Assembly: GCA_963812015.1 (NCBI GenBank)
Contig: CAWETI010000002.1
Span: forward strand, 576,001-640,000
Reading direction: 5' to 3'
Length of the DNA stretch: 64,000 nt
DNA from: an uncultured delta proteobacterium
GTDB lineage: Bacteria > Desulfobacterota > Desulfobaccia > Desulfobaccales > 0-14-0-80-60-11
In this document: in pieces, positions 58,549 through 64,000 of the stretch
Layout of the letters: each line of letters begins with the position of its first letter
Numbering within the stretch: position 1 is the first letter of the stretch
The notes under the pieces: generated by a model
The model's database searches: none
What the model saw: the letters and a program-made list of their open reading frames with translations, nothing else
What the model was told of the DNA's origin: nothing
Translations under genes and position numbers: made by a program

Positions 58549-59736
58549 TTAAGTATTCCGCAAATATTTATTGTCCGGCGGCCGCCCATAATTGAGAGAC
58601 AAATCCCCTACCCGGGCCATGGCCTCATTCTCGCCGGCAAAGCGGGCTGGGAACTCCACCGACAGCCGCCGGGAAATCTCCCCCAGGGAGCTTTGGCCGT
58701 CCATCAACTCCAGGATGAACCGGTCGATGCGGCCATCCTCTGTCAGAACCGGCACATGGGTAGAGGCCCGTTGCTTCAGGCTAGCTGGAGATACGGGGGC
58801 GCCTAAAAAAGTGGATTGCCGGAACTCGGCCTTTAGCCGCCCCGGCTGGCTCTCGTCCAGGATGCGGGTATCCCAGCGCCAGAGATAATCATCTCCCACC
58901 AGGTTGGCGGCCAGGTCTACCGATACCACATCCCCCGCTTCCAAGTTCATGGGTTCCGGCCAGGGGAAAAAATATTTGGCATAAACCCCGGGGCTTTCGC
59001 CGGGGCGGTTGGAAAAGGATACGCCCGGAGCCAGAAGGGCGTCGAACCAGAGAACGATGCCGTGGGCCGTGCCGGCCCGGTCCGTGGTCCACGCTAATTC
59101 GCACCGGGCATCGGGCTCCGCCACCGTATAAAAATTTAAGGTCCACCAGCATTGGGCCGGGGCCAACATATCCTCCGGCGTTACCCGGGCCGAGTAACTT
59201 TGATTAATGGCCAGTGGCCACGCCGCCCGCAGATCCAGCCCGTAAACATCTTCCTTCCAGGCGGAGGTATGTTTCTCATACACCTCCGGCAATGCCACCA
59301 CCGCGGCCCAGAGGGTATCCTCTTGGGGAATCAAACGCCCTCCGGGAGCCAGAAAACGCTGCCGGGCATCCACAATAGTCGGGATTATTTGTTGAAAAAA
59401 AGGCAGCGACCCGTGCAGGTCGGAAACGATGACGTCCACCGGTTCCGGCAGGGTAATCCGGGTGGAAACGTCCTGGATGAAATGAATCCGCTCCGCGTAG
59501 CCGTTGGCGGCCGCCAGGTCCCGGGCCAGATCGAGGAGATCGCTGGGGTCGATGGCATAAACCCGGGCCGCGCCGCACTGGCAGGCCAACAGGGCGAACA
59601 TTCCGATGCCGGTGCCGATGTCCAGCACCACCGCCCCGGGGCTGACGGCTGAGCGCAGCGCCTCCCGGTAACCGGCCGTCCGCTTGGCATCGAGGATCAT
59701 CTGGCCGTAGCCATCGAGGGAATAAGTATGGGTCAT
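58549..59736 (-). CDS. PRMT-like SAM-dependent methyltransferase with C-terminal PqqD/RRE-like domain
   Basis: MILD..RT..Y..AL, VLDIGTGIG, GAARVYAID, VDVIVSD, ARQRFLAPGG.LIP, HG..LWFD; tail LTEDG...FILELMDGQSSLGEISRRL..EF. Confidence 0.75.
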   Translation of the reverse strand: MTHTYSLDGYGQMILDAKRTAGYREALRSAVSPGAVVLDIGTGIGMFALLACQCGAARVYAIDPSDLLDLARDLAAANGYAERIHFIQDVSTRITLPEPVDVIVSDLHGSLPFFQQIIPTIVDARQRFLAPGGRLIPQEDTLWAAVVALPEVYEKHTSAWKEDVYGLDLRAAWPLAINQSYSARVTPEDMLAPAQCWWTLNFYTVAEPDARCELAWTTDRAGTAHGIVLWFDALLAPGVSFSNRPGESPGVYAKYFFPWPEPMNLEAGDVVSVDLAANLVGDDYLWRWDTRILDESQPGRLKAEFRQSTFLGAPVSPASLKQRASTHVPVLTEDGRIDRFILELMDGQSSLGEISRRLSVEFPARFAGENEAMARVGDLSLNYGRPPDNKYLRNT

Positions 59737-60773
59737 ATTGACAGGCTTGATTTTTCCGCCCGATAGTCGCCGCCGGCTTGGAGATGGGAAAAATCCTCCA
59801 GGATGCTCTCGCAGAGTTGGTTCAGGTAGGCGGGTCCGGCCCGGGGAATCAGGCGGCGCACCGGCACCCGCTCCAGCAGGCGGCCCAGGACCTCGAACTC
59901 ACGGGCCCGCAGCTCCTTATCCAAAAACTTCGACCCATAGGTGTTGGCTATCAGCAGCAGCAGCCTTTCCTTCCCCGGGACCTCTTCCACCCGGGGACCG
60001 GCATCCTCCTGCCGCGCCCCCAGGATATAAATGGCCCCTAAGGGGAGAGGCCTAGACTGAAAGCAGTAGCCGGGGGCGGTAAGGTTGAGCCACCGCTTGT
60101 CCCATTCGGGATCCAAGGTATTATCCGAGATGACCGGAGGCAGGGCGGTGGGGGAGCCATAGAGATACACCACCGATTGGGGCCAGAGACAGACATTGGG
60201 GTCCCCCGGGAGCACCCAAAAGGTATCATCCTCCTCCTTAAGAACCGTGAGGTCATCGGTGAGCACCGGGTAGCCCAGGCGGGCAAAGGCCGCGGCGGTG
60301 GTGGATTTGCCGGCGCCCGGAAACCCCAGCACCGTTAGGGCGTGTCCTCCCGCGGCCACGGCGCTGCCGTGCAGACAGGGCGTCCCCCGCCAACGCAGGA
60401 GAATCCCCAGGACCGGGCCCAACAGGTAGGTGGAGAGATATTCCTGGGTCGCGCCTTCGGGCCCCGAGACCCAAAGACGCGACCCCGCAGAGTCCATGAC
60501 GAACTGGCAGCCGTCGCTGTATCTCAGCCGGAAGTATCGGCCTCCGGCCACCTGCCAGGCTCTATAGACGGGTTCGCCGCCCTGGTCATCCTCGAAGCCG
60601 GTTTGCCACAATTCCTGGGGCATCTCCAGGAACCGGCGCCACCATTCCGCCGTGCCCTCATGGCATATTTCCACATCTACCGCCGCTGGCTCCGCCTGGG
60701 CCACTAGACCGGGAATAGGCCGGTCGGACCTTAGCCGCAAGCCGAAGATGTTATAAAACAAAGACGCAACCAT
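59733..60773 (-). CDS. HPr kinase-like Ser/Thr kinase (lasso-cluster type)
   Basis: YNIFGLRLRSD, LHGSAV, Walker A GFPGAGKST, LTDD; 4-nt overlap with the methyltransferase. Confidence 0.85.
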   Translation of the reverse strand: MVASLFYNIFGLRLRSDRPIPGLVAQAEPAAVDVEICHEGTAEWWRRFLEMPQELWQTGFEDDQGGEPVYRAWQVAGGRYFRLRYSDGCQFVMDSAGSRLWVSGPEGATQEYLSTYLLGPVLGILLRWRGTPCLHGSAVAAGGHALTVLGFPGAGKSTTAAAFARLGYPVLTDDLTVLKEEDDTFWVLPGDPNVCLWPQSVVYLYGSPTALPPVISDNTLDPEWDKRWLNLTAPGYCFQSRPLPLGAIYILGARQEDAGPRVEEVPGKERLLLLIANTYGSKFLDKELRAREFEVLGRLLERVPVRRLIPRAGPAYLNQLCESILEDFSHLQAGGDYRAEKSSLSI

Positions 60774-60802
60774 GAAAAGCGATGATTCGGCCCTTTGTAA
60801 TG

Positions 60803-60949
60803 CTAAGCTGCAGTTTTATTACGACCAGTCCAACCGCCAGTGTCAGTATTACCATTTCTACCTGTAGCCATGGTAATCTGCTTGACATTGCCGTAATCCA
60901 TCACCTGGGGGGGGTGATAAGCCAGCCGTTCTTTTTTCGTGGATTTCAT
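60803..60949 (-). CDS. Lasso peptide precursor, 48 aa (not in ORF track)
   Basis: MKSTKKERLAYHPPQVMDYGNVKQITM-ATGRNGNTDTGGWTGRNKTAA. RBS AGGAGG lies 6 nt upstream. Leader has YxxP, G and Thr at -2; core has Ala1 and Asp9. Confidence 0.88.
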   Translation of the reverse strand: MKSTKKERLAYHPPQVMDYGNVKQITMATGRNGNTDTGGWTGRNKTAA

Positions 60950-61157
60950 GATGGTCCTCCTGTCGTGACATGATTTTGGGGTTTAGTCCTGTGAGTTGAT
61001 ATGTTAACATTCCGCATCTGCCGTAAAATTTATGATGATTTCACGGGCCAGATGAAAAAAACCTCTTCCCGAGTTTAACCCCCCAAAGCCTCTCCTTTTT
61101 ATTACCTAATTGCCTTGAAAAAAGCAAGTCTTAATGGTGGTGGCTGTTATCCTAAGT

Positions 61158-63002
61158 TTAGGAGCGAATCACTGATTGCAGAAATTCCTCCAGACCCTTG
61201 ATGCAAGTCATATCGCGGTAGAGCCTGCCCTTAGTTGCTGCAATTTTCTGGCTTATTTGCTCCCGCCAGCTCTCGTCCAGGGCAAGACGCGCGGCCACCG
61301 CCACGTATTCTTCCAAGCTGGTGACGATGGTCTCCGTGACGCCCATCATGGTCAAAAAAGCCATACTGTGCCTTCCCCGCATAAGATTCCCGGGCAGCGT
61401 AACCACGGGCAGGTCACAGGCAAGGGCTTCTAAGGTGGTGTTGCCTCCGGACCATCCAATGCTGTCCAGGAAGATGTCGGACAGGCAATTCAGGGCGTGA
61501 TATTGCGTTGAATCCAGCCGCGGTAAAAGGGTAACATAATCTTCGGAATTTAAGCCATAATTCCCGAATGCCTGATGCAGACGCCGCTGAAATTGGTTAT
61601 TTACGAAAACCGAGTCTCCTTGAATAAAGGCGAATTGACAGTTGCCTACTGCTTTGGCGAGTTGCGGGAAGACGGCATCGTATTGCGGCAGATACTTGAA
61701 TAGGGACTGTGGGCAAAAAAATAAAATACCATTCGACTTAAGGTCGAAACTGGCCCGGCTCAGCCCAGTCTCCGGGAATTCCCGGGGGCTGTAAAATGTG
61801 GAGAGATTGGGCAATTTCACCAGTTTTTCGGTGTAATGCGCTTCAGCTCCCGGAGGCTCCATCAGCTCGCTACTCAGATAGTAGTCCATGGTAGGTAAGC
61901 CTGAGGTAACCGGGTGGCCCCAGGACACGCACTGGATAGGCGCAAGCTTTAATGAAGCCAGCCTGAGAGTCAGGTAATCCATTCCCACTTCAGGATAGAT
62001 CAATATGTGCAGCCGGTCCCCGCGGATCATCCGTGCCAGTTTTGGTAATGAAAAAACGTCTTCCACCAGGCGGACAAAACTCTGCCTCGCCTGCCCGGTT
62101 TCATTGTCCTTTCTAGTTCCTGTGTGGTAGCCGTATAGCTGAAACCGCCGTTTATCTAAATTCTCCCCCCAACCCTTTGCGAGAATCTTCCAAACGGAGT
62201 GTTCCCATAAGAAACCTGAGACAATCCCGACTCGGCAAGGTTCGACCGGATTGGAGGGCGGCATCGAAGGGGCTTGGGCCCATTTCGGGTATCTGGCTGC
62301 CTGAATGCGACAAACCAATTTACCATAGAGACTCTGAAGATCGCGGTCATTGAGTCCCTGATATGCCAAGTAAAAAGGAAAGCAACTCCCCACAGCCTGG
62401 GCCGCCTCCTTAATCTCGGCCGAACTATCTAGCCTGATGGTTTGGCACAGATGCTCCAGTTCCTTTTGATAGCATCTCCGGGTTTGCGCAATCTCGCTCG
62501 CCTGACCGTAAAGAATAGGAGTTTGAGCTATACAAAGATTGAGCCGGGCTCTCACCGAGTCAGGTTTTATAGCCAGGGCCTTTTTTAAACAGTCGAGTGC
62601 CTCTTGCTGTTCTCCTAGGTTAGAGAGAATTGCCCCCAATCTATTGTAATGCTTGGCATTATGAGGATCAAGTTCTATCGCCTTTCTATAGCAAGCGATG
62701 GATAAGCTGGCTAACTTTGGATCTTCGGTTGCCAAAAGAGCCTCCCCTAGTTTACAGTGGGCAGAAACCTTCTTCGGTTTAATTTTAATAGCTTGGCTAT
62801 AACAACGCATAGCCTCAGATAATTTTGCCAGCTCCATTAAAACATCGCCCAGACGAACAAAGGTATCATAGGTTGGTTCTATTTCAATTACTTCGCGGTA
62901 AGTTTTCTCAGCTTCTCGAAAGTTTCCGGATCGGCAGTCTTGCAGAGCTTTTTTTAATCTTTCTCTTATATCAGGTGATAGTTTCCTAATTTCGTGGGAC
63001 AT
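61158..63002 (-). CDS. TPR-containing GT41 family glycosyltransferase (OGT/SPINDLY-like)
   Basis: N-terminal TPRs; RVGIVS..L.EHSV, LAPIQCVSWGHPVTSGLPTMDYYLS, YTEKLVKLP, FKY.P, DIFLDS..WSGGNTTLEAL...LPVVT. Confidence 0.87.
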   Translation of the reverse strand: MSHEIRKLSPDIRERLKKALQDCRSGNFREAEKTYREVIEIEPTYDTFVRLGDVLMELAKLSEAMRCYSQAIKIKPKKVSAHCKLGEALLATEDPKLASLSIACYRKAIELDPHNAKHYNRLGAILSNLGEQQEALDCLKKALAIKPDSVRARLNLCIAQTPILYGQASEIAQTRRCYQKELEHLCQTIRLDSSAEIKEAAQAVGSCFPFYLAYQGLNDRDLQSLYGKLVCRIQAARYPKWAQAPSMPPSNPVEPCRVGIVSGFLWEHSVWKILAKGWGENLDKRRFQLYGYHTGTRKDNETGQARQSFVRLVEDVFSLPKLARMIRGDRLHILIYPEVGMDYLTLRLASLKLAPIQCVSWGHPVTSGLPTMDYYLSSELMEPPGAEAHYTEKLVKLPNLSTFYSPREFPETGLSRASFDLKSNGILFFCPQSLFKYLPQYDAVFPQLAKAVGNCQFAFIQGDSVFVNNQFQRRLHQAFGNYGLNSEDYVTLLPRLDSTQYHALNCLSDIFLDSIGWSGGNTTLEALACDLPVVTLPGNLMRGRHSMAFLTMMGVTETIVTSLEEYVAVAARLALDESWREQISQKIAATKGRLYRDMTCIKGLEEFLQSVIRS

Positions 63003-63116
63003 TCAGTTACCTTTTCTATTTAAATTGCATTGAATCTTTTTGCAACATGGGCTGTTAAATAAAGTGCCACCGGAGCTCAATTAGTCTTTTTATGGTCTCC
63101 AACTAGATCAGGATAA

Positions 63117-63998
63117 TCAACACTCAAATTTTGCCAGCCAGTAATTGAGGCTTAAGGGGCGCAGGTTTATCCACAGCCGACCCGGGTCGGTCTCGGTCGT
63201 CGCCGGGGGAACCGCGGCGCGCCGGACATAGGCGGCCAGCCCGTCGCATGGCTCAAAGTTATCCAGCCACCGGGAATCGGGGCGGCGGACCAGGGCCAGT
63301 TCGGGATGGTCGACCATGGGCGTTTTGGGACGGCGGCGGATAAGATCCGGCAGACGCTCCTTGGCCAGTTCCCGGAGCATGATCTTATCCACGCACCAGG
63401 GCAGTGGCGGCAGGCTCAGGGCGTAGGTGAGAAGCCGCACATCCAGCAGGGGATGGCGAAACTCCAGCGGCCCCCCCATAACCCCGGCGTCATACTCCAT
63501 TTCGAAACACCCTTGCAAAAAAGACCCGGCCAGAAAGGCGCAGGCTTCGGGGCGCACCGGGGGCTGGGGCGCCGACCTTCGCTTGAAAAGTTGCCACCGG
63601 GCAGGCAGGTCCAGCCGGGCGCTCAGGTCCGGGTCAAGCCACTGGGGGAACCCGTCCTCAGGCTGGCTCCGGCTGTTGCGAGTGCGCCAGCGATCCAGGG
63701 CGGTCCTGAAACCAACTTGCGGCATATGGCCGTAAAGGAAGAGACTGCGCCCCATTCCCGTTACCAGTGGGGCCAGATGCAGGCTCCGGGCCAACTTGTA
63801 GATATACGATTTGGAGGGGTAAAGAATCTCGTCGCCGCCATGGCCGGTGAGGACTACCCGGCTGTGGATAGCGGCCAGCTTGATCATGTCCAACCCGGCT
63901 GCTGCTCCACGGGGATCGTGGCAGGGCTCCGGTTCGCTCAGGTCGGCCTGGCGCTCAAACAGAGCATAATCATCCTGGGGCAGAAACTCGATAGGGAC
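63117..63998 (-). CDS. Asparagine-synthetase-like lasso cyclase, C-terminal part (5' end outside window)
   Basis: Frame is open to the window edge; VLTGHGGDE, EFRHPLLDVRL, DK.MLRE...LPD.IRRRPKTP; located in a cluster with a lasso precursor. Confidence 0.8.
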   Translation of the reverse strand, partial: VPIEFLPQDDYALFERQADLSEPEPCHDPRGAAAGLDMIKLAAIHSRVVLTGHGGDEILYPSKSYIYKLARSLHLAPLVTGMGRSLFLYGHMPQVGFRTALDRWRTRNSRSQPEDGFPQWLDPDLSARLDLPARWQLFKRRSAPQPPVRPEACAFLAGSFLQGCFEMEYDAGVMGGPLEFRHPLLDVRLLTYALSLPPLPWCVDKIMLRELAKERLPDLIRRRPKTPMVDHPELALVRRPDSRWLDNFEPCDGLAAYVRRAAVPPATTETDPGRLWINLRPLSLNYWLAKFEC

Positions 63999-64000
63999 TT

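Follow-up and report, generated by a model that had tools for sequence, protein, structure and literature searches.

Which of the enzymes encoded around a lasso-peptide precursor act on that precursor is the question raised by a locus of an uncultured delta proteobacterium (assembly GCA_963812015.1, contig CAWETI010000002.1). The locus lies at one end of a 64,000-nucleotide stretch, referred to here as the window (G000:C2:576001-640000, G000 being the genome). Judging by the organisms named for close homologues, the host is probably of Desulfobaccales type. Five minus-strand open reading frames (ORFs) follow each other there in the order cyclase, GT41 glycosyltransferase with tetratricopeptide repeats (TPR), precursor, HPrK-like kinase and a methyltransferase with the fold of protein arginine methyltransferases (PRMT). 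The initial annotation had read them as a lasso-peptide cluster with three tailoring enzymes, whose product may be phosphorylated, methylated and O-glycosylated. Judged by its sequence, the locus is a real, complete lasso-peptide gene cluster, and on balance its product would be a lasso peptide of 21 residues whose C-terminal tail is modified. The kinase and the methyltransferase form a common module, to which GT41 and arginase are optional additions. A phosphate and a methyl group on the product are plausible; for the sugar the chances are about even. The three annotated tailoring enzymes are present, but the set was incomplete, an arginase-TPR protein and a PsmN-type nucleotidyltransferase being encoded as well.

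The precursor and the lasso-forming proteins

Gene order and shared strand were as annotated, and the ATGA overlap of the kinase and methyltransferase genes is real (59733-59736); the kinase start lies 29 nt past the precursor end, not 30 nt. B1 (RRE) and the transglutaminase-like B2 had been expected beyond position 64000, and both were found there (Table 1). With B1 and B2 present, a cyclase that scores best on the lasso model and a precursor leader in register, the assignment to a lasso cluster held.

Whether the synthetase groups with AsnB or polysaccharide amidotransferases had been proposed as a check. It grouped as the lasso type: the lasso model NF033535 gave the best score (362 bits), against 240 for AsnB and 223 for the exopolysaccharide (EPS) amidotransferase. 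The cyclase starts with MSG, thus carrying Ser in place of the glutaminase Cys, while the three other homologues in the genome start with MCG. The same Ser was found in 38/38 readable cyclase homologues (83 examined), and an SGGLDS motif is present at 265. The best score on the lasso model and the missing glutaminase Cys ruled out an AsnB or EPS-amidotransferase identity. It weighs against these family assignments that the cyclase (362 vs 525 bits), kinase, arginase and precursor all fall under their NCBIfam cutoffs.

The precursor gene has a strong ribosome-binding site (AGGAGG). Its 27-aa leader ends YHPPQVMDYGNVKQITM and matches the pattern YxxPxLxxxGxxxxxTx in register, with Val replacing Leu. 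A motif scan of the 3.96-Mb genome (99.9% complete) found it to be the sole open lasso-type precursor, one further pattern match holding a stop codon; by these features the precursor is no chance ORF. The cut site was placed by the Thr at (-2). The predicted 21-aa core is ATGRNGNTDTGGWTGRNKTAA, i.e. ATGRNGNTD-TGGWTGRNKTAA, with a predicted Ala1-Asp9 ring and a computed monoisotopic mass of 2086.99 when cyclised. It holds Arg4, Trp13, Arg16 and an N17-K-T sequon. The core has no Ser and its tail ends K-T-A-A, and hence it does not belong to the paeninodin subfamily, whose acceptor is a C-terminal Ser.

The tetrapeptide TGRN occurs twice in the core (window 60803-60868), with differing codons, and the two copies may be equivalent modification sites. 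As regards ring size, positions 7-9 lack Asp/Glu in 39/107 cores encoded in the loci L003-L162, and 36 carry Asp/Glu solely at position 10; provided that the Thr(-2) rule applies, this points to naturally occurring rings of 10 residues. Structurally characterised lasso rings have 7-9 residues (PMC13352647), and a ring fragment of metanodin is termed b10 (PMC12670498).

The kinase-methyltransferase module and its target residues

The kinase carries the catalytic motif H135-G150-G153-G155-K156-S157-D173-D174, with spacing identical to that of BsfK (H148-G163-G166-G168-K169-S170-D186-D187; PMC10368454), which bears out its annotation as a peptide kinase. BsfK, which accepts Thr and is assisted by B1, belongs to the bsf cluster of Bradymonas sediminis FA350, also deltaproteobacterial and composed of A/B1/B2/C/D/K/N (PMC10368454). 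The bsf leader has Ile at (-2), and in the accessible part of that paper neither a methyltransferase nor GT41 nor arginase is given for the cluster. The psm cluster (pseudomycoidin, Bacillus pseudomycoides DSM 12442) likewise shares A, B1, B2, C, an HPrK-like kinase, a nucleotidyltransferase and an ABC exporter with the present one (PMC6993621, PMC9266682). A PRMT-fold methyltransferase, GT41 and arginase are not described for psm in the accessible text of these papers, and its target is a C-terminal Ser, unlike the Ser-free core of the window.

The spread of the module was assessed among relatives of the methyltransferase (at least 1,547 proteins), using the loci in the best 80 of 460 confirmed genome stretches and the best 80 of 547 metagenome stretches. 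Fifty of these 160 loci were long, their sequence reaching 6 kb or more upstream and 3 kb or more downstream of the methyltransferase. The kinase-METHYLTRANSFERASE module is widespread, cyclase and kinase both occurring in 46/50 long loci, and its hosts are Acidobacteriota, Cyanobacteria, Gemmatimonadota, Deltaproteobacteria and Gammaproteobacteria. The long loci also held B1 (42), B2 (32), the nucleotidyltransferase (40), an ABC gene (15) and arginase (1), and GT41 in no case; among all 160 loci the counts were 129 for kinase, three for arginase and one for GT41. The five families, whose co-occurrence had been proposed for checking, therefore do not form a fixed set: the pairing of kinase with methyltransferase is common, and GT41 is a rare addition. 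In 4/50 long loci no lasso genes were found at all. The loci L041, L044, L048 and L060 encode PRMT-fold homologues whose surroundings are free of lasso genes for 10 kb, and these enzymes may serve other peptides.

The cores encoded beside the methyltransferase end in a recurrent motif. K-[T/S] was found within the last six residues in 72/92 de-duplicated methyltransferase loci with a precursor, and Ser/Thr among the last five in 87/92; Lys occurs in 97/107 cores, Arg in 40/107 and Ser/Thr in 107/107. The conserved K-[T/S] tails, together with the match of the kinase motif to BsfK, make Thr19 the likeliest phosphate site. BsfK itself, though, phosphorylates Ser3 of its core, so that the site need not be C-terminal (PMC10368454).

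The methyltransferase consists of a PRMT core (residues 1-310) followed by a helical domain (about 315-388). Its AF2 model (pLDDT 90.8) gave a Foldseek TMt of 0.84 to PRMT1 (6nt2), and VIA gave Z 34.3 to PRMT2 against 13.9 to PrmA. The best PDB sequence matches were PRMTs throughout. With these data the Rossmann plus beta-barrel core fold of PRMTs was confirmed. Core fold, S-adenosylmethionine (SAM) motif and N-terminal helices are shared with PRMT1, PRMT2 and Hmt1 (6nt2, 9qca, 1g6q), at 22-25% identity when structurally aligned.

In PRMTs, two Glu of the double-E loop bind the guanidinium group. The window enzyme, apart from being bacterial, lasso-linked and extended by a C-terminal helical domain, departs from the eukaryotic PRMTs at just these residues. 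When its SDLHG...FQQ is aligned with SEWMG...YES, Asp106 stands for the first Glu and Gln for the second; the first is Asp in 130/138 scorable family ORFs, and the second position is variable. The residue two past Asp106 is Arg or His in 67/70 aligned members. The THW loop, which takes part in Arg coordination (PMC8399567), is absent from 188/188 family ORFs. Since the second Glu and the THW loop are missing, arginine methylation by this enzyme appears unlikely. Of its annotation as 'PRMT-like', the fold stood and the arginine-binding residues did not.

The C-terminal domain gave a weak PF05402 match in 47/87 members (best E 6e-5). Its model is all-helical and has no strands, while PqqD/RRE domains have three helices and a three-stranded sheet. 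The top VIA match was PqqD 3g2b, with Z 5.7, rmsd 7.4 and 68 residues aligned, a score in the chance range; the comparison with lasso B1 (6jx3) also stayed in the chance range (Z 4.9). An hhalign comparison gave a probability of 7.7%. The domain thus resembles the helical half of PqqD/RRE only weakly.

It is highly probable that the methyltransferase acts on the lasso peptide. For its target we tentatively propose, at somewhat less than an even chance, the amine of Lys18, beside phospho-Thr19. This choice was made because, in a control set selected by the kinase, K-[T/S] occurred in 8/18 clusters with the methyltransferase and in 0/29 without it. The control search yielded 14/83 genomes in the host's class, 14/401 in its phylum, 34/301 in Acidobacteriota and 17/301 in Cyanobacteria. 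Several clusters with a close kinase and no methyltransferase end R-T instead (L178, L239, L244). Certain points weigh against lysine. The kinase-selected clusters are kin and not independent, so that the significance of the contrast is overstated, and just eight of the 18 clusters with the enzyme have the motif; of six methyltransferase-less rows excluded for flanks below 3 kb, two (L270 and L299) carry K-[T/S]. Moreover, 7/92 loci have an R-[T/S] tail instead, 3/107 cores in methyltransferase loci have neither Lys nor Arg, and L267 combines a strong methyltransferase with a core devoid of basic residues.

Two other targets were considered. The enzyme could methylate the phosphate of phospho-Thr, giving a methyl ester, or another oxygen or an amide near the C-terminus. 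Its coupling to the kinase, by the ATGA overlap here and by the presence of kinase in most loci, agrees with this, as do the invariable presence of Ser/Thr in cores of which three have no Lys or Arg, and the Arg/His two past Asp106, a basic group that could bind phosphate or carboxylate. We consider such a target rather unlikely, however, for the switch between K and R tracks the presence of the methyltransferase, the methyltransferase would have the nucleotidyltransferase as a competitor for that phosphate, and Asp106 fits a cationic amine substrate. Still less probable is the reading as a genuine arginine methyltransferase of bacteria, with Arg4/Arg16, or ornithine made by the arginase, as its substrate. 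The complete PRMT fold (Z up to 34), the two Arg within the repeated TGRN motif and the R-T ends of some loci (L182 having R-T plus arginase) would suit it, but Arg is found in far fewer methyltransferase-locus cores than Lys (40 against 97 of 107), the family neither conserves the second Glu nor has THW, and the arginase, present in just 3/160 loci, would remove the same Arg. Methylation of Lys18 is therefore kept as the best guess.

A few relatives of the module may be noted in their own right. The methyltransferase gene of L302 (G488:C33) is broken, probably by an insertion, into two parts with about 1.1 kb between them. Twelve loci, mostly from Pyrinomonadaceae (L046, L047, L049, L051, L052, L056, L057, L061, L062, L068, L069, L079), encode a shorter methyltransferase that lacks the C-terminal helical domain; their cyclases are mostly shortened, and B2 was not detected in the locus. 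The cyanobacterial clusters L271-L274 hold B1, tandem precursors, kinase, B2, ABC and nucleotidyltransferase genes, with no cyclase seen in 20 kb. Their cores are Thr-rich without ring Asp/Glu, and the products may be linear polyphosphorylated peptides.

The glycosyltransferase, the arginase and the flanks

The catalytic part of the GT41 protein matched SPY (7y4i) best, with 95.8 bits against 37-41 bits for N-glucosyltransferases (NGTs). H268, S269 and K436 align with H495, S496 and K665 of SPY, so that the active-site His and the essential Lys are kept. Like Arabidopsis SPINDLY and bacterial SPY/OGT-like GT41 proteins (7y4i, 5djs, 2vsn; PMC9715652), the protein joins TPRs to a two-lobed GT41 domain; it differs from SPINDLY in having only about four TPRs and in sitting inside an operon for a peptide that is made on ribosomes and modified after translation (RiPP). 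Because Trp and Asn replace Tyr744 and Thr748 of SPY, the donor sugar is not readable from the sequence. An O-linkage of the sugar is more likely than an N-linkage.

This is the sole GT41 found in the genome, and within the class GT41 was found in 2/83 genomes, in both cases inside a lasso cluster. The lasso cluster of the second genome (G033) has no methyltransferase; there, kinase and nucleotidyltransferase are followed by two GT41 copies of 58% identity. In the Acidobacteriota genome G561, a 56%-identical GT41 stands immediately before the kinase in a lasso cluster of another subtype, which includes two sulfotransferases; a search of the order of G561 found GT41 in G561 alone (1/10 genomes), and two further Acidobacteriota matches (G764, G701) showed 35% identity. 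A quick tree was made of 72 rows (the window protein, 13 ORFs from the loci and 58 of 120 database matches). The window protein, both G033 copies and that of G561 share in it a short-form clade of 12 rows, mostly 560-630 aa long (SH-aLRT 93). All four clade members with known context thus belong to lasso clusters, which show three gene orders and come from two phyla. The phmmer scores (L122 377, L178 522, L192 456 bits) were preferred over HMM scores, which are inflated, the HMM having been built from these or overlapping ORFs.

The two related clusters have features of their own. That of G033 (L178:9900-11372; L178:16277-L179:1057) includes a radical SAM gene, the two GT41 paralogues and an unassigned 254-aa gene, and its core has Asp at position 11. 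L256 (G561:C9:46000-60759) comprises GT41, kinase, two sulfotransferase genes, cyclase, precursor (predicted core GGPNINSEAFSYHPS) and a radical SAM/SPASM gene; its product is a candidate glycosylated, sulfated and phosphorylated lasso peptide.

Taken together, these data leave it evenly balanced whether GT41 acts on the lasso peptide. Several findings count against it. Eight of the 12 clade members come without genomic context, and the support of the clade is below 95. The single GT41 among the 160 methyltransferase loci (L122, where kinase, methyltransferase and GT41 share a 3.2-kb contig) forms a long branch apart from the short clade; kinase, methyltransferase, GT41 and cyclase occurred together in none of the relatives examined. 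No lasso genes lie within about 10 kb of nine more distant GT41 copies, one of which (in G690) is 56% identical, and two of these distant loci are flagellar. At least 4,974 proteins match GT41 at E<=1e-50. The gene has a foreign GC content at third codon positions (GC3) and stands beside a large polysaccharide locus, and the three GT41-linked cores share no motif or sequon and are not clearly Ser/Thr-rich. A GT41-precursor complex prediction, folded without alignments, scored 0.01 and carries no weight either way. Four DNA sequencing runs, the best of which may be the source sample, showed no contig that bridges the GT41 gene, which likewise carries no weight.

As an alternative, GT41 may be a passenger between cyclase and precursor that glycosylates cell proteins or serves the surface-polysaccharide locus, leaving the lasso product without its sugar. 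Its GC3 of 0.53, at the 4th percentile of long ORFs, is well below the 0.72-0.76 of its neighbours, and because of it GT41 is probably a later arrival. GT41 is also missing from 159/160 methyltransferase loci and from the close relatives G032, G002, G039 and L084. It belongs to a very large general family, more distant copies adjoin flagellin/FlaF genes, and both class-level cases adjoin wza-wzc. On the other side, the gene is co-oriented with the operon that encloses it, searches of G000 and G033 for flagellin and the pilin N-methyl motif gave no match, and the context-known short-clade members are all lasso-linked as described. We put the passenger explanation a little short of an even chance. 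Far less credible is an HMW1C/NGT-like N-glycosyltransferase acting on the N17-K-T sequon. An N-x-T sequon is present in the window core and in that of G033 (N-R-T), but it already occurs in 25/107 background cores and is missing from the G561 core, and the scores favour SPY (96 bits) over NGTs, with 46 bits on NF049992 against a cutoff of 1000.

Glycosylation of lasso peptides by a dedicated enzyme has a precedent in the davasins, where IgtG, a membrane GT2, O-glycosylates a Ser of the mature lasso with as many as four sugars (PMC11912497). In its accessible part that paper names IgtG the sole glycosyltransferase with lasso genes in its network and does not mention GT41. A Stanieria cluster with a recognisable glycosyltransferase is mentioned in PMC6993621, the passage not naming the family.

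The gene between B2 and C matches the peptide arginase OspR (8brp, E 2e-8). Its motifs ENHDQAY, DAHDD and LDIDVDY correspond to EEH(N/H)EAF, DxHxD and LDIDLDY of the peptide arginases (OspR/FlmR/OhkR/PbsE), and all six of the metal (Mn) ligands listed for peptide arginases in PMC10028609 are kept; lasso peptides are not mentioned in the accessible text of that paper. Fusion to TPR, as seen here, is also known from the peptide arginase PbsE (PMC12257519), and OspR and PbsE resemble the present enzyme in having Arg in the linked cores. Arg was present in the core of 5/5 full-length arginase loci with a precursor, against 40/107 background cores. Some reserve comes from Asn at the position of OspR Glu11, from a score on NF052474 of 47 of 350 bits, which marks a divergent branch outside the curated family cutoff, and from the origin of four of the five arginase loci in one bacterial family. 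Judging from these motifs, the arginase-TPR protein fairly likely turns Arg4 and/or Arg16 into ornithine. A carbamoyltransferase-TPR gene nearby was considered as its partner (Arg to ornithine to citrulline) and rejected for now, being bounded by remnants of insertion sequences (IS) and having a GC3 of 0.46; homologues stand near 4/160 methyltransferase loci, none with arginase.

IS remnants and the carbamoyltransferase-TPR gene keep B1 and the ABC exporter apart. On the opposite flank, nusG, wza and wzc are followed by a long surface-polysaccharide locus (window 24233-58286) with a Wzx flippase, GT1/2/4/9-type enzymes, a DegT aminotransferase, a sugar transferase, wzc, wza and a NusG/RfaH-like gene, which is broken up by IS630-, IS1595- and IS3-like elements. 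It may be noted that wza/wzc also adjoin many related lasso cassettes. A scan of the locus for promoters and terminators returned 12 promoter-like and 15 terminator-like sites, none of them usable.

Table 1. Genes of the lasso cluster and its surroundings. Extended window coordinates are C2 positions minus 576000.
Feature	Position	Strand	Remarks
PRMT-fold SAM methyltransferase	58549..59736	-	395 aa; PRMT_C 38.6 bits, above cutoff
HPrK-like peptide kinase	59733..60773	-	346 aa; TIGR04352 33 bits, far under 200 cutoff
Lasso precursor A	60803..60949	-	48 aa; NF033528 lasso_cyano 21.5 bits, cutoff 33 not reached
Short TPR + GT41 glycosyltransferase (SPINDLY/OGT type)	61158..63002	-	614 aa; PF13844 66 bits, above cutoff
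Lasso cyclase C	63117..64949 (window holds 63117-64000, last 293 codons; start G000:C2 640949)	-	610 aa; NF033535 362 bits
Peptide-arginase-like + TPR	extended 64946-66538	-	530 aa from TTG; NF052474 47 bits
B2 peptidase	extended 66585-67088	-	NF033537 81 bits, cutoff 33 passed
B1/RRE (PqqD)	extended 67033-67317	-	PF05402 48.8 bits
PsmN/BsfN-type divergent nucleotidyltransferase	extended 67535-68683	+	PF14907 131 bits
ABC exporter	extended 75121-76938	-	75% identical to gene directly upstream of B1 in G033
Carbamoyltransferase (NodU/CmcH) + C-terminal TPR	G000:C2 645842-648064 (L001:11843-14065)		low GC; between IS remnants

A proposed pathway and its meaning

The following pathway is put forward from the gene set, motifs, folds and co-occurrence. 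B1 would bind the leader, B2 would cut after Thr(-2)-Met(-1), and the cyclase would join the Ala1 amine to the Asp9 side chain; here the genes are shown and the chemistry is that of the families, and we hold these steps with high confidence. The kinase is likely to phosphorylate a Thr of the precursor, and Thr19 of the K-T motif is modestly favoured as the site. By analogy with PsmN, the nucleotidyltransferase probably extends the phosphate. The PRMT-fold enzyme would methylate the peptide, most likely at the Lys18 amine and not at Arg. Two optional modules added in this lineage may also act: the arginase-TPR protein, which would convert Arg4 and/or Arg16 to ornithine, and the short GT41, which would place one sugar on a Thr hydroxyl, a step with about even chances. 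The ABC transporter would export the product.

In pseudomycoidin the tail carries a phosphate with added sugar, proposed to be a steric lock (PMC6993621), and the tail modifications here would similarly serve as a steric lock and tune the secreted peptide. Aromatic plugs (F/W/Y) are missing from 93/110 family tails, and for this reason the modifications may lock the thread. The window core may need such a lock less, as it has Trp13; that Trp13 and Arg16 may keep the core threaded without any modification counts against the proposed role.

A cluster in decay, or a branched-cyclic or linear phosphopeptide in place of a threaded lasso, would be a different outcome. The exporter is parted from the cluster by IS remnants, unmodified pseudomycoidin is not threaded (PMC6993621), and no product was obtained in E. 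coli from four refactored soil clusters that have split B genes as well as tailoring genes (PMC12670498). On the other hand, all ORFs are intact, catalytic motifs included, and the ring Asp is conserved across the family, so that we regard this outcome as quite improbable. The reading of a modified lasso peptide is thus retained. In its fullest form, all five tailoring enzymes would act on one peptide bearing ornithine, a phosphorylated (or extended) Thr19, N-methyl-Lys18 and an O-linked monosaccharide; the GT41 clade would have been recruited repeatedly into unrelated lasso subtypes as the first RiPP-dedicated SPINDLY/OGT type, and the PRMT fold repurposed as a peptide lysine methyltransferase. 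This complete combination is improbable as a whole.

Lasso clusters with kinase and nucleotidyltransferase are already known. In the accessible parts of PMC13352647, PMC9266682, PMC11285071 and PMC11912497, the only forms of lasso methylation listed are the C-terminal ester and aspartimide, and the sugars of glycosylated lassos are given as attached to Ser or to phosphate. PMC4289311, as far as accessible, notes a lasso cluster in Desulfobacca and the presence in some clusters of genes for HPr kinase and sulfotransferase, their function not being given. No lasso peptide with a PRMT-fold methyltransferase, peptide arginase or GT41 was found in the literature searched (the accessible text of PMC13352647 of June 2026, PMC9266682 and PMC11285071), though subscription papers or supplements may mention one. 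The lasso subfamily with kinase and methyltransferase is widespread, and its product was not found described in the literature searched. What the present locus adds is the link of GT41 to a lasso cluster, and this GT41 may be the first of its family acting on a lasso peptide. One cluster lets three enzymes meet a single 48-residue substrate. If the proposals hold, a bacterial SPINDLY/OGT-type enzyme would gain a defined substrate of small size, the PRMT fold would gain a new chemistry, relevant to a family with at least 1,547 members, and tools to decorate lasso scaffolds would result.

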